Notes: generated by a model from the letters alone, not told the origin. Counted from the stretch's first letter, positions 7,066 through 59,389 are shown. The stretch: DNA of 64,000 bases from Pseudomonadota bacterium (GCA_014382245.1 JACNKC010000077.1:7395-71394); one strand, 5' to 3'. Program-made: numbers and translations.

Positions 7066-9320
7066 TTCACGGCAGCGACAGGACCATAGATGAAGCCCTG
7101 GCTGCCGAACACGGCCTCAGCGCTGAAGAATACGCGGCCATACTAGAGCATCTCGGGCGCACGCCGACGATAGAAGAGTTGGGCGTATTTTCGGTGATGT
7201 GGTCCGAGCACTGCAGCTACAAGAGTTCGCGGGTGCATCTCAAGAGGTTTCCGGTCTCGGGTCCGGCGGTGCTGCAGGGGCCTGGTGAGAACGCTGGAGC
7301 CGTGGACATCGGCGGTGGGATGGCTGCTATCTTCAAGATCGAGAGTCACAACCACCCCTCTTACGTCGAGCCCTACCAGGGGGCGGCGACAGGCGTGGGC
7401 GGAATACTTCGGGACATTTTCACCATGGGCGCGAGACCTGTGGCTAACATGAATGCCCTGTTTTTCGGCGAGCCCGAAGACGAACGCACCTCCTACCTCC
7501 TTTCCGGCGTGGTCTCAGGCGTAGGCGACTACGGCAACAGTGTCGGTGTGCCAACCGTTGGCGGGCAGGTCAACTTCGACGCCGCTTATAACGGCAACAT
7601 ACTCGTCAACGCTTTTTCGCTGGGCATAGCCAGGGCCGACAACATCTTCAGCGCGGTAGCGAGCGGCGAAGGAAACCCGGTACTTTACGTGGGCTCGCGC
7701 ACCGGTCGTGACGGTGTTCACGGCGCCAGCTTGCTCGCATCCTCCGAGTTCAAAGAAGAATCAGAGCAGATGAAGCCCACCGTGCAGGTAGGCGACCCCT
7801 TCGCAGAAAACCTCCTGATAGAGGCTTGCCTCGAAGTACTCAAGGGCGATGATGTGGTGGCTATACAAGACATGGGTGCCGCTGGCTTGACGAGTAGCTC
7901 GGCCGAGATGGCCGGTCGGGGCGGAGTGGGCATTTCTCTTGACCTCGACAAGGTTCCGCTACGCGATTCTTCGGTGAGTCCTTACGAAATACTGCTGTCG
8001 GAATCGCAGGAGCGAATGTTGCTCGTTGCCAGGCAGGGACGCCAAGGGGCCGTCGCCGAACTCTTTTCTCGCTGGGACCTCGAGTGCGTTGAAGTAGGAG
8101 TCGTCACCGGTGACGGAAGGTTGCGTGCGAGCTGGCGTGGCGAAGAGATACTCTCTATCCCCGTTGCTGCGCTTACCGACGACGCCCCCGCTTACCAGCG
8201 CCCAATCAAAGAACCAGCCACCCGGCCAGTCAGTAGTGGAGGGGTGCTCGGCGATGGTGAACTCTGCGAACCGGCTTCCGTGTTGTTGGAGATGTTGGCT
8301 TGTCCGGAACTTTGCAGCCGACGCTGGGTTTTTGAGCAATACGACTCCTGGGTAGGGGCCAATACCGTGATCCACCCGGGTGGCGATGCCGCCGTGATAA
8401 GGGTGGCCGAAACGGGTGCTGGACTGGCGATGACAGTGGATTGCAATCCTAACTACGTGGCAAGCGATCCATACCTGGGCGCCCAACACGCAATAGCCGA
8501 GGCGGTGCGAAATATATCAGTCACCGGCGCGACACCGCTCGCGGTGAGCGACTGCCTGAATTTCGGGAGCCCCGAAAAGCCCGAGGTGATGTGGCAGTTC
8601 AGCCAGGCGGTCGACGGGATGGCAGCAGCCTGTCGTCATTTCTGCACGCCGGTTATCTCGGGCAACGTGAGCTTTTATAACGATACTCGGGGCGAATCGA
8701 TCCCGCCGACGCCGGTGATCGCAATGGTCGGCCTGATGGCCGATTCAACCACTGCGGTGGGCTGTGCGGCCATCGGCCAAGGCCGCAGGATTTATCTACT
8801 CGGTGGCGGTGTGGCAACTCTTGAAGGCAGCGTTTTCGAGCGCCTTTACGCCAATAACCCCGTGGGTGGGGTACCCGCACTCGATCTCGATGCCGAGAAG
8901 GATTGCTCGGCTTTGTGCGTGGACCTGGTCCAGCAGGGTCTCGTCACCGCAGCCCACGATCTGTCGGAGGGCGGCTTGGCTGTCGCCCTTGCCGAGATGG
9001 TTGTACAGGAGGGCTCATGCGGCATTGTCGCCCGGGTACCCGATCATGGCCGCCTGGACAGTTCCATGTTCGGCGAGAGCGCTACGCGAATCCTGGTTGT
9101 TGTTGAAGCTGGGGATACAGATGCCGTCGAAGCTGCGGCATCGGCCAGCGGCGTGCCCTGTCGATTGCTCGGCGAAACCGGCGGCGATCGTTTCCGCCTG
9201 GAGCGCGACGGTGAGACGGGTGAGCGGCTGCTCGATCTCGAATTGGCACAGCTACGGGCAGCCCGCGAGCAGACCCTACCGACGATCGCTGCAGGCCTGA
9301 AGGATTTTGAAGCGGCATGA
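7062..9320 (+). CDS. purL: phosphoribosylformylglycinamidine synthase subunit PurL (FGAM synthase II)
   Basis: 752 aa with AIRS-like domains. The start GTG 7062 overlaps the purQ TGA (GTGA). Confidence 0.93.
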
Positions 9321-45235: not shown

Positions 45236-46039
45236 TCAGCGGTCCCAGGCGATGTTTTGACCCCACGAGGAGCCAAGCATCGCCGCCGGCGTGTTCTTGT
45301 TTATGTGGCCGATAAGGCCGCCGTAGATTCCGTATCCCACGAGTTCCTGCAAGCGCGGATCAAAGTCGCGCACCCTCTCCCGGGGAATGCCCAGTTGTTG
45401 GTTTTCCTGCTGCCGTATGTAGCCGGCACAATAGTTCATGGCGACCCCCAACCTGGCCCCATCGCTGGCGTTACGTCCACCACCGTGCCACATGGAACCG
45501 TTCCACAGCAACACGTCACCCCGCTTCATTTCCGCGGCAACGGTTTCAAGCGGGACGCCGTACTCCGGAACGTCCTCGCGCAGGTGAGAGCCCGGTATGA
45601 TACGAGTGGCCCCGTTCAGCTCGGTAAACTCGGTCAGTGCCCACATGGTGTTACAGACCAGGGCCGGGTGGGGACGCGCAATAGGAATGAGCTGGTCATC
45701 GGCGTGCAGGGGTTGGGCTAATTCACCGGGTAGTATTTTGATCGACGACAAGGACGACACCAGGCAGCCGCTGTCGAGGACGCCTTCAACGACAGGCAAC
45801 ACGGCTGGGTGTACTGGTATTTTCTCAAAAACCGGGTCAAGGGCCAGCAAGTTGTAGATTCTCAGCGTGTTGACACCTTCGAAATCGTTACCGGCGGGCT
45901 CGACAGATAATTCCTTCTCGAGGCGGCTGACGGCGGCTTCAATTTCGTCTATCAACCCTGGATCAACCGAGTCTTCAACAACGGTGTAACCCTGCTTTTC
46001 TACCCTCGCGAGGTGCGCAGCTATTTCGGTTTCGCTCAA
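45236..46039 (-). CDS. phytanoyl-CoA dioxygenase (PhyH) family Fe(II)/2-oxoglutarate oxygenase
   Basis: PhyH motifs ...PLHADDQ... (H-x-D), ...IIPGSHLRE... and ...GSMWHGGGRN. The proposed start TTG 46039 overlaps the TGA of the DIO-like gene (TTGA); GTG 46087 is an alternative. Confidence 0.75.
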   Translation of the reverse strand: MSETEIAAHLARVEKQGYTVVEDSVDPGLIDEIEAAVSRLEKELSVEPAGNDFEGVNTLRIYNLLALDPVFEKIPVHPAVLPVVEGVLDSGCLVSSLSSIKILPGELAQPLHADDQLIPIARPHPALVCNTMWALTEFTELNGATRIIPGSHLREDVPEYGVPLETVAAEMKRGDVLLWNGSMWHGGGRNASDGARLGVAMNYCAGYIRQQENQQLGIPRERVRDFDPRLQELVGYGIYGGLIGHINKNTPAAMLGSSWGQNIAWDR

Positions 46040-46785
46040 CTGGCCACTGCCTGTTCGCGAGAATAGGAGGAGATAGCCTCTTCCCACTCGGCCGGTAGGA
46101 AGAACATGGGACCGGGCCCGCTCTTGTAAACCACGCTACCGTCCAATCCGACCAGCGCCAGGCGTTCGGGAATCGCGTTCCACGCGTTCGATACGGCATT
46201 GTCCATGCCATCAACGAGGGCTGGCGGCTCAAGCGCGGTTTGTAACATGCACGCCTGGCCAGCGTCTATCCTCTGGTCGATGCTCGTGGGTTGGGTAAAA
46301 ACTACACCGTCTGCAAGGTTCTCGTCCACCTGCCAGCCATCGCTCGGGTGAATTTCCTTGATGTAAACAACGTAAAAATCGACCTGGTCTTTCCAGCGAC
46401 GGTAGATCTCGTTAACGGCACCAGCCTGGTACCGGAAGGGCGGTCAAGTGTAGCTGCCAAAAACGAGAGCGACCGGCCGTTTGCCGAAATGATCTGAGAG
46501 GGTGACCGCCGGACCGTCCTTGTCGTTGAGCCGAGCGAGAGTGAAGTCAGTCGCAGCCTGTCCGGCCTGCAGCGATCCCGGCTCGGCCGCCATGGATTCG
46601 GTCAGGTGCTGGGCCGACAGGGGATTCTCCATCGCCGCGGCCAAGCGCCCCCAGCCTTCTTCGCCCAGCTCTGCATCTACGGCCTTGAAATTGAGTCCCT
46701 GCTGTTCTGCCAGGGCCTGGACCAGTTCCCGAATTTTTGCTGTTTCCATGGGGCCTAATCTGAGACAGGGGTCGGCCTCTTGCAA
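46036..46785 (-). CDS. iodothyronine-deiodinase-like thioredoxin-fold selenoprotein (in-frame UGA = selenocysteine)
   Basis: Two same-frame ORFs (46444-46785 and 46036-46329) are separated only by TGA 46444-46446. Reading through gives ...KRPVALVFGSYT-U-PPFRYQAGAVNEIYRRWKDQVDFYVVYIKEIHPSDGWQV...VDGMDNAVSNAWNAIPERLALVGLDGSVVYKSGPGP..., collinear with the vertebrate deiodinase core (FGSxTUPPF; VYIxEAHPSDGW; DRMDN...YG; GGKGP). The start is TTG 46785 or ATG 46749. Confidence 0.72.
46416..46434 (-). other. candidate bacterial SECIS hairpin downstream of the UGA
   Basis: The mRNA reads UGA-CCGCCCUUC-[CGGUACC-AGGCU-GGUGCCG]. This is a 7-bp stem (one G-U pair) with a 5-nt loop, starting 10 nt after the UGA, within the positional window of bacterial SECIS elements. 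Confidence 0.4.
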
Positions 46786-49410: not shown

Positions 49411-50160
49411 TCAGGTGAACAGGTCGTCTTCGGGCGGCCGAAGGAGCTCAATGGCACTGCCGGCACCCAGTTCGGCGCCGCTACCTCGCACCAGTACGGC
49501 CGGCACTCCAGCATCCTTTTTCATGGCAATACCGGCTGCGGCAGCCAGCTGGTCGGCGACCGCGAGGGATGTGTGCTCGAGGGTTCTTCCCGTCCAGTCA
49601 CGGCCGCCCTCCCTGTTGTCGACGGGCAACAAGCCCGCGCAGCCTATGGCCAGGTCGATCTGCCCCAATCTCCAGGCGCGGCCGAAGGTATCCGAAATGA
49701 TCACGCCGACCTGCGCTTCGTAGTGGACAGCAAGCCGCGACATCAGTCGGAGCGCCGACTTGTCCGAATCTTCGGGCAGGAGGGTAGCGTCGCCCTCGAC
49801 GGCCTGGTTTGAGCAGTCAACGCCCGAGTTGGCGGCAACAAAGCCGGGACCGGTGCGAGTGATGAGATGCCCGTCCTTCTTGCGCAGGATTTGGCTCGCT
49901 TCGAGTAGCGCCAGCTCTACGACGGCCGGGTCCTTATCGTGCGCATTGGCAAACTCAAGGGCCTCGTCCGAGGGCTCGACCTCGGACAGCTTGCGTACCC
50001 TTCCTTCGGCCCGTGACACGACCTTCTGGCATACGACCAGGACGTCGCCGGATTTTACGCCGACCTTCTGCTTGTCGATAGCATCGATGAGCAAGGCGGC
50101 GAGATCGTTCCCAGGCAGGACCATGGGGACGCCTTCGATGGGTATCAACATGGTTACCAT
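49411..50160 (-). CDS. cofE: coenzyme F420-0:L-glutamate ligase
   Basis: 249 aa. ...GVKSGDVLVVCQKVVSRAEGR..., ...VAANSGVDCSN... and ...IISDTFGRAWRLGQIDLAIGCAGL match the F420_ligase family (PF01996). Confidence 0.8.
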   Translation of the reverse strand: MVTMLIPIEGVPMVLPGNDLAALLIDAIDKQKVGVKSGDVLVVCQKVVSRAEGRVRKLSEVEPSDEALEFANAHDKDPAVVELALLEASQILRKKDGHLITRTGPGFVAANSGVDCSNQAVEGDATLLPEDSDKSALRLMSRLAVHYEAQVGVIISDTFGRAWRLGQIDLAIGCAGLLPVDNREGGRDWTGRTLEHTSLAVADQLAAAAGIAMKKDAGVPAVLVRGSGAELGAGSAIELLRPPEDDLFT

Positions 50161-50161
50161 T

Positions 50162-51130
50162 TCAGCGTTCCGTCCCGCCGAGCGGTATCTTCAAGAGAAA
50201 CCGCGCGAGTGCCAGCGAACGCCGCTTACTATTCAGCAGGGTGTTGCGCTCAAGCAGGCGGGGCCAGGTGGCTTCAGGCCGCCGTGGTGCGTCCCCGGGC
50301 GAAACGACCAGCGACGTCGCGAGGCCCTCGTAAAAGTCTGCTATGCCAGCGCTTCCTCGACCCGCACCAAGGCTTTTCATCATAGCGACCAAGGGGCCCT
50401 TCACCGCCCGACCATTGACCAGTGGACTGACCGCAATGGTCTTGCGGCACACGGCCCCCAGCGCTGCGCGTAGACCCGGAATCGCAAGCATGGGCGCAAT
50501 GCTTACGTAGGGGTTGCTGGGAGCGATTATTACCTTGTCGGCCGATGCCAGGGCCTCGCTGACCCCGGGCGCCATGCTGGCCCCGGACGCGCCCTTGTAA
50601 GTGATGCCGTCCACCCTCGGGCGGGCGCCTTGCTTGACGAACCACTCCTGGAAGGCAAAACGGCGTCTACCCGACCTGAGCACGGTACGCACCGGGTCGT
50701 TGCTCATGGGCAATACCGAGGTCCGAATACCCAGTTGTGTGCAGATTCGCCGGGTAGCCTGGGCAAGAGAGGAGCCCTCTCTCAACAAGTGGCTACGGTA
50801 AATGTGAAGGGCGAGGTCCTGGTCGCCAAGCGAGAACCATTGGTCACCGAAATAACGACCCAGCCAGGGCAGGGCGTTCCGGGTATCGCCGCGTATACCC
50901 CAGCCCCTCTTGATCGGGGCAAGCCCGGCCAGTGTGTACGCCACCGTGTCGAGGTCCGGAGATACCTGCAGTCCATAAAAACTCTCGTCGTCTCCCGTGT
51001 TGACGATCACGGTCAACCTGCGGGGATCAACGACTTCAGCGAGTCCCCTAAGGAGTCGGCAGGCTCCCACTCCACCCGCCAGCAGGGTGATTCGTGGGTT
51101 GGCCGGCAAGGCGTCCATCATCGCTTTCAT
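50162..51130 (-). CDS. cofD: 2-phospho-L-lactate transferase (LPPG:FO transferase)
   Basis: ...ITLLAGGVGACRLLRGL...VIVNTGDD... matches the CofD/UPF0052 N-terminal motif. The annotated start overlaps the cofH 3' end by about 80 nt; the real start is unresolved. Confidence 0.78.
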   Translation of the reverse strand: MKAMMDALPANPRITLLAGGVGACRLLRGLAEVVDPRRLTVIVNTGDDESFYGLQVSPDLDTVAYTLAGLAPIKRGWGIRGDTRNALPWLGRYFGDQWFSLGDQDLALHIYRSHLLREGSSLAQATRRICTQLGIRTSVLPMSNDPVRTVLRSGRRRFAFQEWFVKQGARPRVDGITYKGASGASMAPGVSEALASADKVIIAPSNPYVSIAPMLAIPGLRAALGAVCRKTIAVSPLVNGRAVKGPLVAMMKSLGAGRGSAGIADFYEGLATSLVVSPGDAPRRPEATWPRLLERNTLLNSKRRSLALARFLLKIPLGGTER

Positions 51131-52304
51131 CCAACAGCTCGTACAGGGTGTTCCGTTGCCGGGGTTCTCTACCCCGCGACATGATCATGCTCCTGAGTTC
51201 ATCGGCCGAAGTGTACTCTCCTGAATCCGCACCCGCTTCGCGCGAGATGCTCTCTTCCATCAGGGTGCCGCCAACATCATTGCAACCCGCGTCGAGACTC
51301 AGGGTTGCCAACTCGCGACCGAGCTTGACCCAGGAACTCTGCAGGTTATCAACCAGCCCGTCCAGCATCAGTCGGCTGGTTGCGTACACGGCTATGTCGA
51401 GACGCCCCTGTGGCACCGGGGATACCAGGCCCTCGGCGTAAAGCTGGGTGTTCTGCCAGATAAAACGCAAGGGTACGAACTCGCTGAGTCCACCGGTGTT
51501 GCGCTGGATGCCGCGCAGTACCTCGATGTGTTCGGCCATGTGCCGCGGTGTTTCCAAGTGGCCGTAGAGCATGGTGGAGGTCGTAGGCAAACCCACCTCG
51601 TGGGCGGTGGTCACGATCTCTATCCAGCTGTCGGTGTCGAGCTTGTCGTGGGTAAGGACCTTGCGGATCTCCGGGTCAAAAATTTCCGCGGCGGTACCGG
51701 GCATGGTATTCAACCCCGCTTCGAGGAGTAGCTCGAGATACGGCCGGTAGGCCAGGTTCATTCGATGGGCGCCGTACTGGATCTCCATCGGCGAAAACGC
51801 GTGAATATGAAGGTCGGGGTAGGCCCCGCGCACCGCTCGGAGCAGTTGCAGGTAGCCGTCGTCGGGCATAACCGGGTTGAGTCCACCCTGCATGCATACC
51901 TCGGTAGCTCCCAGCGCCACGCCCTCGCCGATACGGTGGAGAACGTCAGAGACATCGCGGTCGTAAGCCCGGGGACTGTTCTTGAGGTGGGCGAAGGAGC
52001 AGAACTTGCAGCCCACGAAACAAACGTTAGTCCAGTTCACGTTGCGGTTGATGACATAGGTCACCGTATCGCCTACCGCGCGCCGCCTCAGCTCGTCGGC
52101 GACTCCCACGAGGGCGGCCAGCGAATCGCCTTGCAAAGCAAACAGCTCGCTAGCCTCGTCTACGGTCGGCGCTCGGCCGGCCAGCGAACGCTCGAGGATG
52201 GCCGCCAGGCCGGGCGGAGTGGCCGCCAGGCGGTTTTCGAGATCCCGCTGGTCCGCAAAGAGGTACTCGACTCTCTCGGGTGACTGTTCGGTCTGGTAAC
52301 TCAC
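51048..52304 (-). CDS. cofH: FO synthase subunit 2 (7,8-didemethyl-8-hydroxy-5-deazariboflavin synthase), radical SAM
   Basis: CFVGCKFC radical-SAM cluster motif and the CofH-type C-terminal domain. It is a gene separate from cofG. Confidence 0.83.
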   Translation of the reverse strand: MSYQTEQSPERVEYLFADQRDLENRLAATPPGLAAILERSLAGRAPTVDEASELFALQGDSLAALVGVADELRRRAVGDTVTYVINRNVNWTNVCFVGCKFCSFAHLKNSPRAYDRDVSDVLHRIGEGVALGATEVCMQGGLNPVMPDDGYLQLLRAVRGAYPDLHIHAFSPMEIQYGAHRMNLAYRPYLELLLEAGLNTMPGTAAEIFDPEIRKVLTHDKLDTDSWIEIVTTAHEVGLPTTSTMLYGHLETPRHMAEHIEVLRGIQRNTGGLSEFVPLRFIWQNTQLYAEGLVSPVPQGRLDIAVYATSRLMLDGLVDNLQSSWVKLGRELATLSLDAGCNDVGGTLMEESISREAGADSGEYTSADELRSMIMSRGREPRQRNTLYELLDESDDGRLAGQPTNHPAGGWSGSLPTP

Positions 52305-53515
52305 AGGGTTGCACCCCCCTGGGCCGTGATCGCCGCGGGCAGCTCCGCAAAGCGTTCAACCGCCAATCGCATGTCAGGATCCAGGAACTCGTCGTTCACG
52401 TACTCAGGATAAACCGGCAAGCGGGGCTCGAGTTCGAAACCCAGCCCGGAACAGGTCTGCGCCAGGTCTTCTAGATGAGGCCAGGGGTCGCCGGGGTTAA
52501 CGTAGTCCGCGGTCACCGGAGAGATGCCACCCCAATCGTTTATACCGGCATTAACCAGGCGCGCGTGCCCCTGGGGGCTGAGGTTGGGCGGTGCCTGGAT
52601 GTTCATAGCTGGTCCCAGGATCAGGCGGGCGATCGCCACGCAGCGTATGAACTCGTCTTCTGTCGGTTCCGGAAATCCGCTCATCGGCGTGGAGTCCTTG
52701 TGCCTGAAGTTCTGTATGATGACTTCCTGCAGGTGACCGTACTGCTCGTGTAATCGGCGCAATTCGAGGAGGCTCGCGATTCTTTCAGCCTCGGTTTCAC
52801 CAATGCCCACGAGGATGCCGCTGGTGAAGGGTATCCGGAGCTCGCCCGCGTCGGCGATCATGCTGACCCTTGCCGCCGGATCCTTGTCGGGCGCAAACTG
52901 GTGAGGCATTCCTCGTGCGCGCAAACGGGGGCTGACATTCTCGAGCATCAAGCCGAAGCTCACGTTCAGCGGTCGCAGGTTGCGCATCTCATCGTGCGAG
53001 AGCAGCCCCGCGTTGGTGTGCGGCAGCAGATCTGCTTCGAGGGCCAGCGAGCAGGCAAGGCCCACGTACTCGGCCGTGCTCGCGGCTCCCCATCGTTCGA
53101 GCTCGGCACTGAACCCGCGAAAAGCGATCTCGGGTTTGTCGCCAAGGCACATGAGGGCTTCTATGCAGCCGGCTGCTTTACCCCGTTCAGACCACTGGCG
53201 GATCTCGTCAGGGGTCATGGTCCATTCGCCTGCCTCGCCGGGATCCCGGCGAAAGGTGCAGTACGTACACCTGTCCCGGCATAGATTGGTCACAGGGAGA
53301 AAGACCTTCGGGGACCAGGTGAGCACTCGGTCCCGATCGCGGTCGCGCTGCCGGCAGGCCAGCTCACAGATTTCTGCGGTCAGGGACCACTCGCGGTCGC
53401 CGTCAGCACTCCCGCGGGGACTGCCAGCGTGCAGAAGGGCATAAGCATCGTCGTCGCCCAGGCGCTCAAAAGCGCGGGCCCTGGCGAGCGCCCTGTCTAG
53501 AGGATTACCGACCAT
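52301..53515 (-). CDS. cofG: FO synthase subunit 1, radical SAM
   Basis: Motifs ...VFLPVTNLCRDRCTYCTF... The start overlaps the cofH start region by 4 nt. Confidence 0.83.
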   Translation of the reverse strand: MVGNPLDRALARARAFERLGDDDAYALLHAGSPRGSADGDREWSLTAEICELACRQRDRDRDRVLTWSPKVFLPVTNLCRDRCTYCTFRRDPGEAGEWTMTPDEIRQWSERGKAAGCIEALMCLGDKPEIAFRGFSAELERWGAASTAEYVGLACSLALEADLLPHTNAGLLSHDEMRNLRPLNVSFGLMLENVSPRLRARGMPHQFAPDKDPAARVSMIADAGELRIPFTSGILVGIGETEAERIASLLELRRLHEQYGHLQEVIIQNFRHKDSTPMSGFPEPTEDEFIRCVAIARLILGPAMNIQAPPNLSPQGHARLVNAGINDWGGISPVTADYVNPGDPWPHLEDLAQTCSGLGFELEPRLPVYPEYVNDEFLDPDMRLAVERFAELPAAITAQGGATL

Positions 53516-53588: not shown

Positions 53589-54983
53589 CTACTGCGCGTC
53601 GGGCTGCTCTATGCCGAGCTTGTCCATGCGGTATTTCAGAATCCGCCTGGTCGTGCCCAGGGTCCGCGCGGCCCGGGTCTGGTTGTGCCGGGCCCGGCTG
53701 AGGGCCTCTTCGATGATGTCCTTTTCAAACTCGTCCACGGCGAGGTTGAGGCTCTTGCGTCCATCGAGCACCATCTGCCGCGTGCCCGGTCCCGCAGTAG
53801 AGGGCCCCGCCGCCATGTCAGGCGGTAGGCTGTTGACCCCGATCTCATCGCAGTCCGGCGCCAGTACCAGGGTTCTCTCGATCACGTTCTCCAGTTCGCG
53901 CACGTTGCCCGGCCAGGGATAGCCGAGCAGCTGCTCCACTGTCTCCTGGCCCAGCGTCCTCGAAGGCAGACCGTGCTCCCTGGTTTTCTTTTCGACGAAG
54001 TGGCGAATCAGCAGCGGAATGTCTTCAGGCCTGTCGCGCAGGGGAGGGAGGGTCACCGTGACCACGTTCAACCGGTAGTACAGGTCTGCCCTGAACGCGC
54101 CTTCATCAATCAGCTTGCGCAGGTCCCTGTGGGTGGCAGCCACCACGCGCACGTCCACTTGCAAGGGGCCCGAGCCGCCCACCCGCATGATCTCGCCTTC
54201 TTCGAGCACCCTCAGCAACTTGGCTTGCAAGGACGGGCTCATCTCTCCTATTTCGTCAAGGAACAGGGTGCCCTTGTCAGCGATTTCGAACTGGCCGGTC
54301 TTTTTTGCCGACGCGTCGGTGAACGAACCTTTTTCGTGACCGAACAGTTCGCTCTCGAGCAGGTTGTCGGGAATCACCGCGCAATTAATAATGACCAGGG
54401 TCTCACTGGCCCTCGGGCTGTTGTAGTGAATAGCCTTGGCGATGAGTTCTTTGCCGGTGCCTGACTCGCCGCTGATGAGCACCGTGGTTTTGAGCGGGGC
54501 CACTCGACCCACGGTATTGAAGACGTCCTGCATAAGGGAGGATTCGCCGATCATGTTGTCCACGGAGTAGTGAGAACCAACTTCACTGCGGAGTTGGTCA
54601 ACCTCGCGAAGCAGGGCGGCATTTTTGATTGCACGCGAGGCGACCATGCGCAGCTCGTCGACATCGAAGGGCTTGGTGATGTAGTCAAAGGCTCCCAGTT
54701 TCATGGCCTTCACTGCCGTGCGCACCGTCTTGGTGGCCGTCAACATGACTACTGGTAGGGCAGCATCACCCTCGCGGATGTGCTCGAGCACTTCGAGCCC
54801 ATCGATACCCGGCATGAGTATGTCGAGAAAGGCGAGGTCGGGACTGTTGTCCTTCAACCACTCGATGGCGTCTTCGCCACAGGGCTGGGTCACCGTCTCC
54901 CAATCGTCCTTGAGTACCATGCGCACCGATTCGCGCACGCCAGCCTCGTCATCAACTATCAGAACTACCGGTTTGCCTGTCAT
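53589..54983 (-). CDS. sigma-54-dependent Fis-family response regulator (NtrC-type)
   Basis: Receiver domain VLIVDDEAGVRESV...D. AAA+ sigma-54 activator domain with GESGTGKE, GAFTDA-type and LYYRLNVVTVTLPPLRDR motifs. C-terminal Fis HTH. Length 464 aa. Confidence 0.9.
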   Translation of the reverse strand: MTGKPVVLIVDDEAGVRESVRMVLKDDWETVTQPCGEDAIEWLKDNSPDLAFLDILMPGIDGLEVLEHIREGDAALPVVMLTATKTVRTAVKAMKLGAFDYITKPFDVDELRMVASRAIKNAALLREVDQLRSEVGSHYSVDNMIGESSLMQDVFNTVGRVAPLKTTVLISGESGTGKELIAKAIHYNSPRASETLVIINCAVIPDNLLESELFGHEKGSFTDASAKKTGQFEIADKGTLFLDEIGEMSPSLQAKLLRVLEEGEIMRVGGSGPLQVDVRVVAATHRDLRKLIDEGAFRADLYYRLNVVTVTLPPLRDRPEDIPLLIRHFVEKKTREHGLPSRTLGQETVEQLLGYPWPGNVRELENVIERTLVLAPDCDEIGVNSLPPDMAAGPSTAGPGTRQMVLDGRKSLNLAVDEFEKDIIEEALSRARHNQTRAARTLGTTRRILKYRMDKLGIEQPDAQ

Positions 54984-56667
54984 CTACCTCATCCTCCACC
55001 GCCCTTGGCAGTTTCCACGTCAGTCTCGATCCATCCTTGGTATTGGTCACACCGAGGTCACCCCTGTTACGCCTGCTCAGTTCACGGGCCAGCGCCAGTC
55101 GCCATGAAGCCGGCGGCCCACCTCCCGAAGTCATGCCAGCCAGGGCCGCGAGTTGCCCTGAACTACCCGGCACGTCGACCACCATCGCTCCGTCTTCGCT
55201 TACGGTCACCATCGCCGCGGACCCGCGTGGCAGGGTTTCAACAACGGCGTCCACCATGCAGTCGATCGCAAAACAAAGCTGTTGCAGGTCGGCTTCTACG
55301 CGCCACCCCCGCGGCAGATCAATGTGTACCGCTGCGCGGGCCTCATCGCCCCGGTCGATGAGCGCGTGCTCAAACAACTCAGCCACGTCGGCCGTTATCG
55401 GGTCGGGAAGCGAGAACCCCTCGTACTCGACAAGCGTGTCAACGATGCCGCTCAAGCGATCGCAGGCCCCCCTGGCCAGGCGCGCGAGCTCGTTGTCTTC
55501 AGGCGCAATAGAACTGAAGGTTTTCAGTGTCGTCAGCGGATTTCGCAGGTCATGGGCCAGGTGAGCAAGCAGCTGTTCCAGGGGGAGAGGCTCGCCAATA
55601 TCCTCACCGCCATCGCTCTCCGCAACAACGCGGGCCGGAGCGGGAATCGACTGCAAGGTCGGACGGGTCACGCGCTCGACTCCGAACACGATGTCTTCGG
55701 CCTCCAGCTCACGACGCCCGCCGGGTTCGCAGAGCAACAACGCACGACTCCTGCGCAGCACGACTTCGAGCTCGGTAGTGTTGCCCGGCCAGGCGTAAGC
55801 CTGCAGGCGTTCGGCAGCCGAAGCAGCAAGGCAGAACGGAGAGCTGCCGGAGTTCTCGAAAGCGGCGAGCATTGCCCGCGCTAGCTCCGGGATGCAGAAG
55901 GCCTGTTCCCTGAGTGGAGGCAGCAGGGCCGTGAGGCCAGCCACCCTGTAGTACAGTGCCCTTACGAGTCGGCCGTCGGTAGCGAGGCTCTCGGGGCCTT
56001 CGGCCATGCCGGCGACCACGCTGCAACCTGAAACCGCCAGCAGAACCGCCAGTTGTTCTTGCTCGGCGTGGCTGCGCAGCTCGATATCTGGAAGGTAAAC
56101 CACACCCCGCTCGCAAGCAGCTATGAGGCCGGCCGCATCCGCAGCAGCCGTGACGACGATGAACTCGCTGTCGGGGCCTCGCAAAGCAGCCAACGCCGCG
56201 GCCACGTTTTCTTTTCCAACACCTGGCTCACCCACCAGCACGAGCGGGACCTGGCCGGCCGCGGCTTGCTTGAGGACGGGTTCGGCGTGGGCCGGAATCC
56301 AGGGAAAAGTGAGCCACGCGGCTGGCAATGCTTCTTCGCCTACACGGCCACCCGAGCAAAGCCTGGCCACGGCCGCGCTCAACTCAAAGAGGGCAAAAGG
56401 GTGCGGCAGCACTTCCCGACCGGGGCCTTCCAGCGAGCCGCCCCGGGCTGCGCTATCAACCAGGAGCAGCGACGGCGCCGAGCTGCCGATTTCGACAGCG
56501 GCAGAGTCACAGCAATTGACCACCACGGCGTCGGCCTTCGCCAAAGCGGCGGGATCGGCTGATCTGCTCAAGGTCCAGCCCTCGGGCAATACTTCCTCCA
56601 CGGCAACCACGAAACGCCCAAGAGAGTCCAGGAGCAGCAGCTCAGGCATGGATGAGGCCCTCGGCAT
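54952..56667 (-). CDS. atypical regulatory protein: degenerate sigma-54-activator-like AAA domain fused to a histidine-kinase-like module
   Basis: Walker A GEPGVGKE, ...LYYRVAGLTALLPPLRE... and ...YAWPGNTTELEVV... resemble EBP central domains, but the GAFTGA region is deleted. The C-terminus has a HisKA H-box (LAHLAHDLRNPLTT) and a degenerate HATPase_c. The start may be ATG 56649 (an 8-nt overlap with the upstream gene). Confidence 0.55.
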   Translation of the reverse strand: MPRASSMPELLLLDSLGRFVVAVEEVLPEGWTLSRSADPAALAKADAVVVNCCDSAAVEIGSSAPSLLLVDSAARGGSLEGPGREVLPHPFALFELSAAVARLCSGGRVGEEALPAAWLTFPWIPAHAEPVLKQAAAGQVPLVLVGEPGVGKENVAAALAALRGPDSEFIVVTAAADAAGLIAACERGVVYLPDIELRSHAEQEQLAVLLAVSGCSVVAGMAEGPESLATDGRLVRALYYRVAGLTALLPPLREQAFCIPELARAMLAAFENSGSSPFCLAASAAERLQAYAWPGNTTELEVVLRRSRALLLCEPGGRRELEAEDIVFGVERVTRPTLQSIPAPARVVAESDGGEDIGEPLPLEQLLAHLAHDLRNPLTTLKTFSSIAPEDNELARLARGACDRLSGIVDTLVEYEGFSLPDPITADVAELFEHALIDRGDEARAAVHIDLPRGWRVEADLQQLCFAIDCMVDAVVETLPRGSAAMVTVSEDGAMVVDVPGSSGQLAALAGMTSGGGPPASWRLALARELSRRNRGDLGVTNTKDGSRLTWKLPRAVEDEVDDRQTGSSDS

Positions 56668-58930
56668 AAAGGTTGTCGGTCGCCTGTTCGAGAGCCGGGG
56701 AATCGACAGGCAGGGTTATGGTAAAGGTCGTACCACTGCCCGGCGTGCTGTCGACAGCGACCGAGCCACCGTGATTGAGTACCAGCTGCCTGGCGATGGC
56801 GAGTCCGAGCCCGGTGCCCTCTGTCCTGGTAGTAAAAAACGGTTCGAAGGCCTGTTCGACCTGCTCTTCGCTCATGCCGCAGCCATCGTCAGAGATCGTA
56901 AGCGTGGCTGCGTCGGATCCGTTGATCCAACCCCGCCCGGTGCTCACCGTGACACAGCCCTTGCTCCTGCCTTCGCAAGCCTGGATCGCGTTGTGAACTA
57001 TGTTGACGAGGACCTGGTTGATCTTATCCTCGTCGGCGATAACGGGAGGAACCGACGCGTCGGTTTCGATACTCAGCGATACTCCGCTCTTTCGCGCGTG
57101 GCTGTCCAGCAGCGTCGCCACCCGTTCGACCAGCTCGTCGAGGTTCAGCGGGTTTCGTTCGTGCGTGGCCGGGCGCGCAAAAGTAAGAAGCTCGTTAACC
57201 AGGGCAGTTATCCGATCGACCTCGGACAAGGTCAGGTCAAGAAAGGATTCCCGGTACTCTTCGTCGAGGTAACGTTCGGGTAATAGCTGCGTAAAGGTTC
57301 TTATCGAAACCAGCGGGTTGCGAATTTCGTGCGCAAGCACGGCTGCCATGGTGCCGATGGTGGCCAAACGCTCGGAGTGTTGCAACACCTCGTTGCTGCG
57401 CGACAGCGCTTCGTTCAAGCGGACGCTGAGAACGGCCACGGCCAGTTGCCCGGCCAGGGCATCGAGCAGCTCCAGGTCGTGGCGAGAAAATATCCGCGCG
57501 TCGCGTCGCGGACCGAGCAGCATCAAGCCCACGAACTGTTCCCGCGCGACCAGTGGCACCACCACGTCGCTCTCGTAGCGCTCCATTTCGAGGCAACCCT
57601 GCGCGGCCAGCGAAAGCGGCGCGGCGGCCTGTTCGGCTTCTTCGCGCACAGTCGGGGCGCGCAATGACAACGCCCAACCTGCCACCGGGTTGCCGGTTTC
57701 CAACTCCTCGGGCCAGTGTCCCCCGTGAGGCCGGGCCCCGTGGAGGACGTAGTGACCCTTGCCTTTCTCCAGGTAGATCGCGCAGGAAGCCACGCCGTGC
57801 CGCGACGCCAGGGTGCGGGCAACCCGCGACACCATCTCATCGGTGTCGCGAAGCAGGCAAAGCTCCCGGCTCAACTCCAAGACAGCGTCGCGATGCCCGC
57901 GACCATCTTCGAGCAGCGATTCCTCTATACGACTGCCGGCACGTTGCGAGAGGCGGGGGTAGAGGAGAATGCCGCCCACCAGCAGTCCACACGCGAGCAG
58001 CGAGAAGCGGGGTGATACCTGCCCGAAGCTTGCCTCCTGGCCCAGGGCGAGCAGCACCCAGCAAACAGAGCCCACCGCGGCCAGCACCGCCGAGTTGGCA
58101 AGAGTTCGCGCGAGGGCCTGGTCGAGGTCCATCAAGCGGTGGCGAAAAAATGCAAACGACATCAACCACGCCAGGGCGATGCTGCCCGTAGACCCCACGA
58201 GATAGCCGGAAGCCCAGGACGCGGTCCAGTCTGCCGGCGCTGAAAAACGCAAAAAGCCATGCGCAGCACAAACCCAGGCCAGGCCCGCTCCCAGGCGCAG
58301 GTAGCGGGCCTGGTTGCGCTTGAGACCCACGTTTTCACCAGCGGCAGTATGCAGCGAGAGAAACAACACGGCGACCACCAGCATCACGTAGACGGGAACC
58401 AGGCCGCCCATGGGCCCGGCCACCAGGGTCCAGCGAACTTCACCGCTGCCGGCGGTCACCGCCTGTACACCTCCCACGGTGGCCGCGGCGTAGGTACAGG
58501 CCACCAGGGCGACTGCCCCCGCGTAAGCAGCCCTGAGAGTCGGTTTTTCGGGCGTACCGAAGAGCAGCCGTACCGTGTGGAGGAAAAGCAGCGGCGCCAG
58601 TATCGTTCCAAGCAGGAGCTGTTCCGACCAGGCCCTGGCAGCGAGTTCAGAAAGTGGCCGCGTAAGGGCAAAGGCAGCTACGTTGGCGATCACCATTGCC
58701 AGGCAGAAGGCAAAGAAAAGCTGGTGAAGAAGCCGACCGGGCCGACGCGCGAATACAAGCACGCCCAGGAACAGGTGGAATGCCGCCGCTGCAAGGGGGA
58801 GTGCGCTGACCGCGGTCACCCGCGTTCCTCCCTGCTCGCGACCAATGCCGCTGTTGCATTCAGCTTTACGCCCACCCAGACCCCTCAGCGGCTTACCGAC
58901 CAGCCTGTCGGCAACACCCAGCGGCCCCAA
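56642..58930 (-). CDS. sensor histidine kinase (polytopic membrane sensor + GAF + HisKA + HATPase_c)
   Basis: About 7 N-terminal TM helices and a GAF-like region. H-box MAAVLAHEIRNPL. N/G boxes ...HNAIQA...DDGCGM...GTGLGLAIARQLV...GSGTTFTITLP. The start is possibly downstream of 58930. Confidence 0.85.
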   Translation of the reverse strand: MGPLGVADRLVGKPLRGLGGRKAECNSGIGREQGGTRVTAVSALPLAAAAFHLFLGVLVFARRPGRLLHQLFFAFCLAMVIANVAAFALTRPLSELAARAWSEQLLLGTILAPLLFLHTVRLLFGTPEKPTLRAAYAGAVALVACTYAAATVGGVQAVTAGSGEVRWTLVAGPMGGLVPVYVMLVVAVLFLSLHTAAGENVGLKRNQARYLRLGAGLAWVCAAHGFLRFSAPADWTASWASGYLVGSTGSIALAWLMSFAFFRHRLMDLDQALARTLANSAVLAAVGSVCWVLLALGQEASFGQVSPRFSLLACGLLVGGILLYPRLSQRAGSRIEESLLEDGRGHRDAVLELSRELCLLRDTDEMVSRVARTLASRHGVASCAIYLEKGKGHYVLHGARPHGGHWPEELETGNPVAGWALSLRAPTVREEAEQAAAPLSLAAQGCLEMERYESDVVVPLVAREQFVGLMLLGPRRDARIFSRHDLELLDALAGQLAVAVLSVRLNEALSRSNEVLQHSERLATIGTMAAVLAHEIRNPLVSIRTFTQLLPERYLDEEYRESFLDLTLSEVDRITALVNELLTFARPATHERNPLNLDELVERVATLLDSHARKSGVSLSIETDASVPPVIADEDKINQVLVNIVHNAIQACEGRSKGCVTVSTGRGWINGSDAATLTISDDGCGMSEEQVEQAFEPFFTTRTEGTGLGLAIARQLVLNHGGSVAVDSTPGSGTTFTITLPVDSPALEQATDNLYAEGLIHA

Positions 58931-59059
58931 GACGCCGCCCTAGAGACAAGATACAGTCCAAAGCTGTACACGGCAATAGCGCCGCGAGAGTAAGACACCG
59001 TTCAGGTGTTGTTTTTTGTGGACATTCGCGGGGTCGAGCCTACAACTATCGACCGCACA

Positions 59060-59389
59060 CTAACGAACAGGCACCAACCAGCGGCGAAGCAACGCCGCCG
59101 AGGAGAGCAGTAGCCCAAGGAGCACGAATAACTTGCCGCCACTGGCGACCACCCTGTACTGTTCGCGCTTGCCCAGGGCGTTTTCGTAGACGGCGTCGCT
59201 TTCATCCGAATCGTGTAGAAGCGAAGCGGTGTCGGTAGCAGTGACCCGTACTGCCTGGTTGAGCGTCCGTACCGCGGTAATGTCATCGCCGTACTGGGAG
59301 ACCTTGGAAAGACCCATCCACCAGTTGCCCGCTCCGAGGAGGAGAAGCGCGACGCCCAGCGCCAGTACCCGGGATGACCTGCGTTGCAC
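59060..59389 (-). CDS. small two-TM membrane protein (hypothetical)
   Basis: A 109-aa ORF with two hydrophobic segments (ALGVALLLLGAGNWW; LFVLLGLLLSSAALL). No recognisable family. Confidence 0.35.
   Translation of the reverse strand: MQRRSSRVLALGVALLLLGAGNWWMGLSKVSQYGDDITAVRTLNQAVRVTATDTASLLHDSDESDAVYENALGKREQYRVVASGGKLFVLLGLLLSSAALLRRWLVPVR

Follow-up and report, generated by a model that had tools for sequence, protein, structure and literature searches.

The DNA stretch analysed here consists of 64,000 nucleotides from a Pseudomonadota bacterium (GCA_014382245.1, JACNKC010000077.1:7395-71394) and is referred to as the window, with positions counted from its first letter. Positions 53589-58930 of the window are occupied by three minus-strand open reading frames (ORFs, identified by ORF scan) that encode a polytopic sensor histidine kinase, a hybrid protein termed MID and an NtrC-type response regulator. 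Judged from its sequence and predicted fold, MID is an NtrC-like module of receiver (REC) and AAA+ domains, paralogous to the regulator, that has been fused to an NtrB/AtoS-like kinase core, paralogous to the kinase, composed of a dimerization and histidine phosphotransfer (DHp) domain and a catalytic and ATP-binding (CA) domain. On this evidence, the most likely role of MID is to tune the neighbouring activator rather than to act as a kinase or an activator itself.

The sensor histidine kinase gene (725 aa; 56642-58819, minus strand) was delimited using Pfam matches and start-codon context. Its likeliest start is the GTG at 58819, which has a GGAGG ribosome-binding site in front of it, and the mechanical ORF reaches 58930. 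The ATG of the MID gene at 56649 (565 aa; 54952-56649, minus strand) overlaps the kinase stop codon by 8 nt (ATGCCTGA), and the ATG of the regulator gene at 54983 (464 aa; 53589-54983, minus strand; annotated via Pfam and NCBIfam) overlaps the end of the MID gene by 32 nt, in agreement with the coordinates and the overlaps of 8 and about 30 nt given in the original prediction. Start codons were chosen by context and by comparison with gene calls on L001, a metagenome contig that is 92-96% identical, and the two sets of calls agree. The G+C content is even over the three-gene region.

Domain architecture of MID

The annotation of MID combines Pfam, hhalign, AlphaFold2 (AF2), Foldseek and substitution-rate analyses. 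In Pfam, MID matches Sigma54_activ_2 (53.8 bits, E = 3e-14) and AAA_lid_14 (33.6 bits, E = 3e-8), both above the gathering score, as well as Sigma54_activat (22.3 bits, above the cut-off) and HisKA (36.4 bits, E = 5.5e-9, against a cut-off of 26.9). No Pfam match of the window protein to HATPase_c, Response_reg, PAS or helix-turn-helix (HTH) families was found, and the Spo0B- and ChpT-type Pfam families also give no match. The domain models thus recover the sigma-54-activator-like core and the H-box-containing dimerization domain that had been proposed from the sequence, and they leave the terminal ATPase domain unmatched.

More sensitive comparisons were made with hhalign, using an alignment of 15 MID family members as input against alignments of the regulator and of the cognate kinase cores. 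The N-terminal 350 residues align with the receiver, AAA+ core and lid of the regulator (probability 100%, E = 8.6e-46, 344 columns), and the C-terminal 200 residues align with the DHp and CA domains of the cognate kinase (probability 99.8%, E = 2.9e-30, 208 columns). The last domain, described in the original prediction as a degenerate ATPase domain, is therefore a true homologue of the CA domain of the neighbouring kinase. The anatomy first proposed agrees with the analysis at every point checked, and the case is stronger than the original one, because MID has a degenerate receiver domain as well.

An AF2 model of MID built with 64 family sequences has a mean predicted local distance difference test (pLDDT) score of 84.6. 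Its N-terminal part begins with a five-stranded receiver-like fold that is followed by an AAA+ core and lid. About 40 disordered residues then lead to a DHp of two helices and, at the C-terminal end, to a CA-like alpha/beta domain (pLDDT 90-96). When the first ~390 residues are searched with Foldseek, REC-AAA+ structures of NtrX, VpsR, LuxO, NtrC1, NtrC4 and FleQ are returned, with NtrX and VpsR as the top matches and template modelling scores of 0.6-0.67 against the AAA+ domains of bacterial enhancer-binding proteins (EBPs). The last ~215 residues, for which an earlier and poorer AF2 model was used (4 sequences, pLDDT 58), match the kinase cores of ZraS, CpxA, RetS and CusS.

Taken in order along the protein, residues 1-100 form the receiver-like fold (56350-56649, minus strand; hhalign and AF2), and residues ~117-312 form the EBP-type AAA+ core and lid (55714-56301, minus strand; BLASTP, hhalign and the family alignment). 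Residues 356-412 form the DHp, which is the domain matched by Pfam HisKA and which carries the H-box LAHDLRNPL (55414-55584, minus strand), and residues 413-548 form the CA-like alpha/beta domain (55006-55413, minus strand), which is recognized by hhalign and AF2 and has no HATPase_c match.

State of the functional sites

The functional sites of MID were compared with those of the neighbouring regulator using BLASTP and hhalign columns, with the residue roles established for PspF R162, R168, R227 and E108 as the reference for the AAA+ domain (PMC4132715). Much of the AAA+ framework is retained. The Walker A sequence is kept (GEPGVGKE in MID and GESGTGKE in the regulator), and LYYRV, LPPLRE and WPGNTTELE are present, so that all of the core motifs first listed for this protein persist in the BLASTP alignment. 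The parts that contact sigma-54 and hydrolyse ATP are lost. A 24-residue gap in MID falls exactly opposite ELFGHEKGSFTDA of the regulator, i.e. the GAFTGA (L1) segment is deleted, and 13 further residues are missing from the sensor I region. The Walker B sequence reads VYLPD in MID versus LFLDE in the regulator, and the first arginine-finger position is Val. The sensor II Arg, identified as the Arg of GNVRELEN by numbering against PspF R227 (PMC4132715), is replaced by Thr (GNTTELE versus GNVRELE). The original prediction that the GAFTGA loop region is absent is thus borne out by the alignment, which also places the loss of Walker B in the same domain. Both observations that would have counted against that prediction, an intact GAFTGA motif with Walker B and a C-terminal region devoid of HisKA similarity, are contradicted by these data.

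The receiver-like domain is likewise altered at three conserved positions, with the acceptor Asp replaced by Asn45, the Thr by Asp65 and the Lys by His83 in the hhalign column mapping; the register of this mapping is not absolute, because Asp40 and Asp48 flank Asn45. In the CA-like domain the second N-box Asn, which is the Mg-ATP Asn, is Ala, the G1 box DxGxG reads GxSxQ, and neither the F box nor the G2 box remains. The DHp, by comparison with these domains, has an intact H-box (LAHDLRNPL), which contains the E/D-x-x-N/T element needed by HisKA kinases for phosphatase activity and whose His366 is encoded at 55552-55554.

MID therefore combines a DHp and H-box histidine of the HisKA kinase type with a CA domain that lacks the N, G1, F and G2 features of ATP binding, and an EBP-type core and lid with neither a GAFTGA loop nor a catalytic ATPase site. 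The pairing of a DHp histidine with a CA-like domain devoid of ATP binding is the arrangement of Spo0B- and ChpT-type proteins, and the likeness to them is architectural only. Since MID lacks an L1 loop, a catalytic site and a DNA-binding domain alike, it is predicted to be unable to act as a sigma-54 activator, and since it also lacks an ATP site it is predicted to be unable to act as an autokinase. On these site comparisons, ATP hydrolysis at either nucleotide site and contact with sigma-54 should both be beyond the protein.

Conservation and selection across the family

When 1.84 billion cluster representatives are searched exhaustively with a HMMER profile, 256 MID homologues are identified at E <= 1e-30, and most of the best 150 are single-stretch, full-length matches of 560-680 aa. 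A word-indexed search recovers only three relatives. The family resides mostly in Binatia-type metagenome-assembled genomes (MAGs).

Site conservation was counted over 151 aligned MID sequences, and the denominators vary by column. The H-box is near-invariant, with His in 147 of 148 sequences, Glu or Asp at H+1 in 143, Asn at H+4 in 143 and Pro at H+5 in 146. The AAA+ framework is also well kept (136 members have the Arg of PLRE, and 142 have the Trp of W(P/F)GN). The Walker A Lys is found in only 49 of ~126 members, where its replacements are Arg (24), Gln (18), Ala (14) and Thr (10), and Walker B is variable across the family. A sensor II Arg is retained by 13 members, the second N-box Asn by none, and a GAFTGA-like motif by 4 of 150. 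At the receiver acceptor position, for which ~109 sequences could be aligned, Gly (41), Asp (30) and Glu (16) are the residues counted. Eight further members analysed with Pfam have the same three domains, with Response_reg sub-threshold at best, and HATPase_c is absent from all nine members scanned (0/9, the window protein included).

The ratio of nonsynonymous to synonymous substitution rates (dN/dS, omega) was calculated between the window and L001. For the MID gene as a whole it is 0.15, compared with 0.085 for the kinase gene and 0.067 for the regulator gene, and by domain it is 0.41 for the pseudo-receiver, 0.05 for the AAA+ core, 0.02 for the DHp and 0.13 for the CA-like domain. Constraint within MID is strongest on the dead AAA+ core and, above all, on the four-helix-bundle element of the DHp, and the receiver is relaxed. 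The MID gene is judged to be functional because the architecture is maintained family-wide under purifying selection, and the degeneracy of its sites is a trait of the family and not a sign of decay.

The searchable literature yielded no account of such a REC-AAA+-DHp-CA fusion, and neither Pfam nor NCBIfam contains a family-level model for it. Relatives carry the public names 'hypothetical protein', 'histidine kinase dimerization/phospho-acceptor domain-containing protein' and 'hybrid sensor histidine kinase/response regulator'.

The flanking kinase and regulator

The proteins on either side of MID are ordinary two-component proteins. The kinase has 7-8 hydrophobic segments in a hydropathy scan and the Pfam domains HisKA_7TM (weak), GAF, HisKA and an intact HATPase_c, as expected for the polytopic sensor kinase originally described. 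Its core gives AtoS/ZraS-type NCBIfam matches. The regulator has the Pfam domains Response_reg, Sigma54_activat (237 bits), lid and HTH_8. With the receiver acceptor D54, a full AAA+ site, a loop of the GAFTGA type and HTH_8, it has the features that define response regulators dependent on sigma-54. Both proteins also resemble the PrsK/PrsR pair of PEP-CTERM/exosortase systems over their full length, since the kinase has full-length likeness to PrsK TIGR02916 (142.9 bits, cut-off 300) and the regulator aligns end to end with PrsR TIGR02915 (397.9 bits, cut-off 502.6). These scores are well below the curated cut-offs, and the part of the window examined showed neither PEP-CTERM nor exosortase genes.

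The description of the regulator as a genuine EBP stands as regards its complete domains and the occurrence of its orthologues beside -24/-12 promoters (see below), with the caveat that its sigma-54 contact loop reads GSFTDA, not GAFTGA (residues 219-224; window 54314-54331). The form G(S/A)FTDA is kept in the regulator orthologues of L001-L003, with GAFTDA in L003. Variants of the GAFTDA type were deemed compatible with activation in a survey of Desulfovibrio EBPs (PMC4641369), and for the variant of this type in VfmH the compatibility with activation lacks a test (PMC10714721). A MAG named 'Proteobacteria bacterium' encodes a protein identical to the window regulator, and near relatives of the regulator are labelled Candidatus Binatota or Deltaproteobacteria.

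Several relatives also have a second REC-AAA+ EBP gene, divergent from the MID gene, whose product is ~40-46% identical to the regulator and has a canonical GAFTGA. In L003 this gene (7644-9041, minus strand, locus coordinates) gives no HTH_8 match and is located beside AAA_16/SPOR, NusG-like, sulfatase and polysaccharide-export genes. Further matches were obtained with tblastn at about 5515-6681 in L006, 1154-2512 in L007, 5663-6790 in L014 and 5452-6645 in L051 (minus strand, locus coordinates).

Gene neighbourhood

The gene neighbourhood was compared at 21 loci besides the window, taken from metagenomes and GTDB genomes whose records are labelled as Binatia, Deltaproteobacteria, Thermodesulfobacteriota, Myxococcales and Eisenbacteria MAGs. 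The MID gene lies directly upstream of a regulator orthologue at 21 of the 21 loci, often overlapping it, and these orthologues are 51-69% identical. The polytopic kinase is directly upstream of MID at about half of the loci (L001, L002, L009, L010, L012, L013, L015, L016, L017, L085 and L086), and at L087 a shorter kinase of 415 aa takes its place.

In most family members DHp helix 1 of MID closely resembles that of the polytopic kinase (e.g. AHELKNPMVTIKTFAQLLSDRYQDENFR versus AHEIRNPLVAIRTFTQLLPERYDDAEFR). At L009 the helix of MID, AHELKNPMVTIKTFAQLL.DRY, closely matches AHEIRNPLVAIRTFTQLLPERY of the kinase. Helix 1 of MID differs in these members from the SHELRTPL-type DHp that another kinase, present at many loci, has. 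The window protein is more derived, with a loop between helices 1 and 2 that is ~8 residues shorter and a less marked likeness to the kinase.

Directly downstream of the regulator gene the window contains the F420 biosynthesis genes cofG, cofH, cofD and cofE (49411-53515, minus strand; Radical_SAM, CofH_C, CofD and F420_ligase), which are included here as context. The same four genes follow the regulator directly in L001, L002, L005, L085 and L086, and this synteny persists down to 31-36% identity of MID (L002, L085, L086). At L006, L014 and L024 the cofGHDE genes come after two inserted genes. The association with F420 genes is a lineage-specific synteny, because the block is absent at other loci. 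The proximity to F420 genes noted in the original prediction is thus conserved in one lineage, and a regulatory link between the two groups of genes is not demonstrated. Elsewhere, lipB-meaB lies divergently upstream at several loci, and the L003 locus sits among exopolysaccharide genes. L085 also carries an F420H2-dependent quinone reductase family gene (PF04075) at 446-997, a few kb from its operon-cofGHDE block, which fits an F420-rich lineage and is silent on regulation.

A small gene upstream of the kinase gene (59060-59389, minus strand) encodes a protein of 109 aa with two predicted transmembrane segments and no Pfam family. This protein is 98% identical in L001, its identity in L085 is 50% at a locus whose MID reaches only 36%, and it is a possible fourth component of the module.

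Sigma-54 promoters and a candidate operator

No site resembling TGGCAC-N5-TTGC is present in the 73-nt spacer between the regulator gene and cofG, nor before the three-gene operon. Over the whole window, TGGCAC-N5-TTGC with at most two mismatches is found 60 times versus 72 expected, and is thus not enriched; a stricter scan anchored on GG and GC gives two matches. A looser sigma-54 match at 46196 lies inside a coding region and was rejected. Sigma-54 promoters upstream of cofG are likewise absent from L001, L002, L085 and L086. The scans of the spacer and of the window therefore corroborate the earlier statement that cofG has no such promoter. A search for the RpoN box found no rpoN gene in the 64-kb window.

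In 12 relatives, a clear sigma-54 promoter of the form TGGCA(T/C)(G/A)-N4-(C/T)TGC(T/A/G) is located after the regulator gene and 30-70 nt upstream of a gene with REC, HisKA and HATPase domains (L006 11140, L007 8766, L008 11083, L009 12096, L011 10581, L012 ~4180, L013 12086, L014 11333, L015 12067, L017 3932, L024 10482 and L054 5985). The second gene behind this promoter encodes a conserved protein of ~230 aa with an N-terminal CxxC and no obvious family; in L006, L014 and L024 this gene is followed by cofGHDE. Elsewhere the same scan has a background of about one match per 15 kb, so 11 of the 12 matches at this precise place cannot be chance occurrences. The location of these promoters supports a dependence of the G(A/S)FTDA-type regulators on sigma-54. 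The 64-kb window contains no orthologue of the REC-kinase gene or of the CxxC-protein gene, and their promoter is missing there too.

GNNCA-N4-TGNNC palindromes occur 50-160 bp upstream of the sigma-54 promoters of the relatives. This motif is not enriched in the window, where the only credible site is the one upstream of the kinase gene. There, a conserved island (ATTGCCGTGTACAGCTTTGGACTGTATCTT; 58948-58977, minus strand) lies ~130 nt upstream of the kinase start. When the upstream regions are aligned, it is the only well-conserved block that the window shares with L001 and with L085 (GTACAGCTTTGTAC), a distant locus. The island includes the near-palindrome GTACAGCTTTGGAC (GTACA-N4-TGGAC) at 58956-58969, which closely resembles the palindromes of the relatives and is a candidate operator of the regulator; binding of the regulator at this site would imply autoregulation. 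The island is not flagged as a promoter by a sigma-70 scan. Candidate sigma-70 promoters before the kinase gene and before cofG fall below the threshold of the scan tool and are not relied on.

Functional interpretation

MID is read here, tentatively, as an ATP-independent phosphatase or His-phosphotransfer adaptor for the adjacent regulator, with its EBP-like module used for docking or sensing. The E/D-x-x-N/T motif beside the histidine of HisKA domains is the phosphatase determinant of bifunctional kinases, and proteins with a DHp and a pseudo-CA domain, such as Spo0B and ChpT, are ATP-independent phosphotransferases. In the proposed mechanism, the DHp of MID would dock on the receiver of the regulator, would remove or shuttle its phosphoryl group with no use of ATP and would in this way set the level of phosphorylated activator. 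The pseudo-AAA+ core and lid would offer the AAA+ domain of the regulator a surface for docking or for the sensing of oligomers, and translational coupling through the two gene overlaps would hold the three proteins in a fixed proportion. The observations behind this reading are the homology of both halves to the two neighbours, the family-wide loss of catalytic motifs, the near-invariant H-box, purifying selection, the likeness of DHp helix 1 to that of the kinase in most members and the constant position next to the regulator gene; which protein MID acts on, which way phosphoryl groups pass and what the pseudo-AAA+ core does are inferred. By analogy with NifL, MID may also exert some anti-activation of its own.

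A more specific form of this proposal, which is considered rather unlikely, is an assembly-sensing phosphatase or phosphotransferase. The dead AAA+ core would insert into, or cap, the ring formed by the phosphorylated activator and thereby place the DHp histidine beside the receivers of the ring.

Several considerations weigh against a phosphatase or adaptor. The conserved H-box would also fit with mere docking of a receiver or with heterodimerization with the kinase. In many bifunctional kinases a nucleotide in the CA domain stimulates the phosphatase activity, and MID, by its motifs, should be unable to bind any. The omega of 0.05 for the pseudo-AAA+ core suggests that this domain has a role at least equal to that of the DHp, and the role may be steric, as for NifL or for a ring subunit, rather than phospho-chemical. 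In addition, many relatives are without the polytopic kinase and have the sigma-54-driven REC-kinase gene instead, so the circuit may differ between lineages.

The strongest competing explanation, possible although unlikely, is that MID is a NifL-like stoichiometric anti-activator or a ring poison that binds the AAA+ domain of the regulator and blocks open-complex formation without phosphoryl chemistry. It could do so in the way NifL acts on NifA, with its DHp- and CA-like surfaces, or by co-assembly of its dead AAA+ core into the regulator hexamer. The gene order is that of NifL-NifA, with the modulator upstream of and overlapping the EBP gene, and both the strong constraint on the pseudo-AAA+ core and the retention of its GExGxG, LPPLRE and W(P/F)GN..ELE framework would be expected of such a protein. 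What a purely steric mechanism leaves unexplained is the near-invariance of four H-box residues (His, E/D, Asn and Pro) in ~150 divergent members, given that the histidine of NifL is reportedly dispensable, and also the way in which DHp helix 1 tracks that of the cognate kinase. The anti-activator and the phosphatase or adaptor models can be combined and are not mutually exclusive. Both of the roles named in the original prediction, anti-activator and phosphorelay intermediate, accordingly remain the two foremost hypotheses, the former with this reservation about the H-E/D-x-x-N-P box and the latter with the reservation that a classical relay through the receiver of MID, whose acceptor Asp aligns to Asn, is unlikely.

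Indeed, a classical four-step phosphorelay, running from the kinase His to the receiver Asp of MID, then to its DHp His and finally to the regulator Asp, appears quite improbable. The order of REC and DHp fits a fused Spo0F-Spo0B arrangement, and many members of the sub-clade nearest to the window protein (e.g. P0040-P0046) have Asp at the acceptor position, so that a relay through the own receiver is possible in sister clades that keep this residue. The window protein, with all three receiver positions substituted, is poorly suited to it, as are the 41 members with Gly at the acceptor, and the receiver is both relaxed (omega 0.41) and sub-threshold or absent in Response_reg searches. There is similarly little to favour a DHp heterodimer of the RetS-GacS type, in which MID would inhibit autophosphorylation of the upstream kinase. 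The great similarity of DHp helix 1 between MID and the kinase at most loci, and the presence of RetS among the fold matches, speak for such an inhibitor; yet roughly half of the family loci are without an adjacent polytopic kinase and all have the regulator, and the RetS matches are no better than those to ordinary kinases. No better placed than the heterodimer is a positive role, in which MID would form an obligatory hetero-oligomer with the regulator that is needed for activation, in the manner of HrpR/HrpS, FleQ/FleT or a clamp loader. Hetero-hexameric EBPs are known, and this role fits the strict co-occurrence of MID with the regulator, the translational coupling of the two and the conserved AAA+ scaffold. 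Known co-activating partners, however, keep GAFTGA and the ATPase motifs, whereas MID is without both and has no DNA-binding domain, and its DHp and pseudo-CA half would be left with no role. It is hardly credible that MID is nothing special, whether an EBP or histidine kinase of the ordinary sort or a fusion pseudogene in decay. Its individual Pfam domains are common and NCBI names its relatives hybrid kinases or 'hypothetical protein', but MID is without GAFTGA and without an HTH, it has lost the Walker B and ATP-lid motifs, and the architecture is stable in the family and under purifying selection.

Relationship to known systems

Every domain of MID is known, and precedents exist for its parts in NifL, RetS, DivL and RedE, in Spo0B and ChpT, and in NtrX, VpsR and TyrR. 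The flanking kinase and regulator are a pair of the same kind as NtrB/NtrC, AtoS/AtoC and ZraS/ZraR, and both halves of MID derive from these families. Those systems have two components and no inactive REC-AAA+-DHp-CA protein as a third.

Spo0B of Bacillus and ChpT of Caulobacter share with MID a DHp bundle with its histidine and a CA-like domain that does not bind ATP, and the known proteins shuttle phosphate between receivers. They differ in having no EBP-like REC-AAA+ module and in belonging to systems with a separate single-domain receiver, or the receiver of a hybrid kinase, upstream. NtrX, VpsR, TyrR and the Rhodobacter NtrC resemble MID as REC/AAA+ modules without a sigma-54 contact loop, but they keep a DNA-binding domain and are sigma-70-dependent transcription factors. 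In MID, a kinase core replaces the HTH, and Walker B and sensor II are lost as well. RetS (with GacS), DivL and RedE (of the Myxococcus RedCDEF system) are kinase-fold modulators that bind partners or act as phosphatases or phosphate sinks. These proteins have other input domains and no AAA+ module, and no specific sequence relationship of MID to them was found.

NifL differs from MID in its PAS sensor domains, its nucleotide-binding GHKL domain and a histidine that is not needed. MID has a pseudo-REC and pseudo-AAA+ N-terminus in place of PAS domains, a CA-like domain without ATP motifs in place of an ADP-binding GHKL domain, and a near-invariant H-box. NifA, furthermore, is not a response regulator, and the partner of MID has a receiver domain. 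The similarity lies in a kinase-like protein without kinase activity that is encoded just upstream of a coupled sigma-54 EBP (PMC12998190). In the NifL2:NifA2 complex the DH and GHKL domains of NifL, which is kinase-like and has no phosphorylation activity, clamp the AAA+ domain of NifA, and stoichiometric expression is needed (PMC12998190).

Other features of the window

At 46036-46785 (minus strand), two ORFs in the same frame are parted by a single TGA (46444-46446). Read-through of this codon gives FGSYT-U-PPFRY, the active-site motif of iodothyronine deiodinases, and the 249-aa product with Cys at the TGA matches Pfam T4_deiodinase with 94.5 bits in an alignment that spans the TGA. An 8-bp hairpin (GGUACCAG-GCU-GGUGCC) begins 12 nt past the UGA, at the place of a bacterial selenocysteine insertion sequence, and its fold z-score is not significant. 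These ORFs probably represent one deiodinase-like selenoprotein gene that ORF callers have split.

Implications

Two-component systems that act through sigma-54 are textbook two-protein circuits, and here an obligately linked third protein, built of inactive copies of the other two, is conserved in a few hundred clusters from uncultured Binatia-type bacteria. The name 'hybrid sensor histidine kinase/response regulator' is misleading for this protein, which is predicted to be neither kinase nor activator. If the proposed function is correct, MID would represent a new way of tuning an AAA+ activator, in which principles of the NifL type and of the Spo0B/ChpT type are united in one polypeptide, and it would offer a natural case of pseudo-enzyme domains recruited as specificity modules. 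Should the assembly-sensing form of the proposal hold, there would be a direct coupling of activator assembly with the dephosphorylation of the activator itself or with the hand-over of its phosphate, and MID would stand for an unrecognized class of accessory proteins that provide feedback and are made from inactivated copies of both partners.

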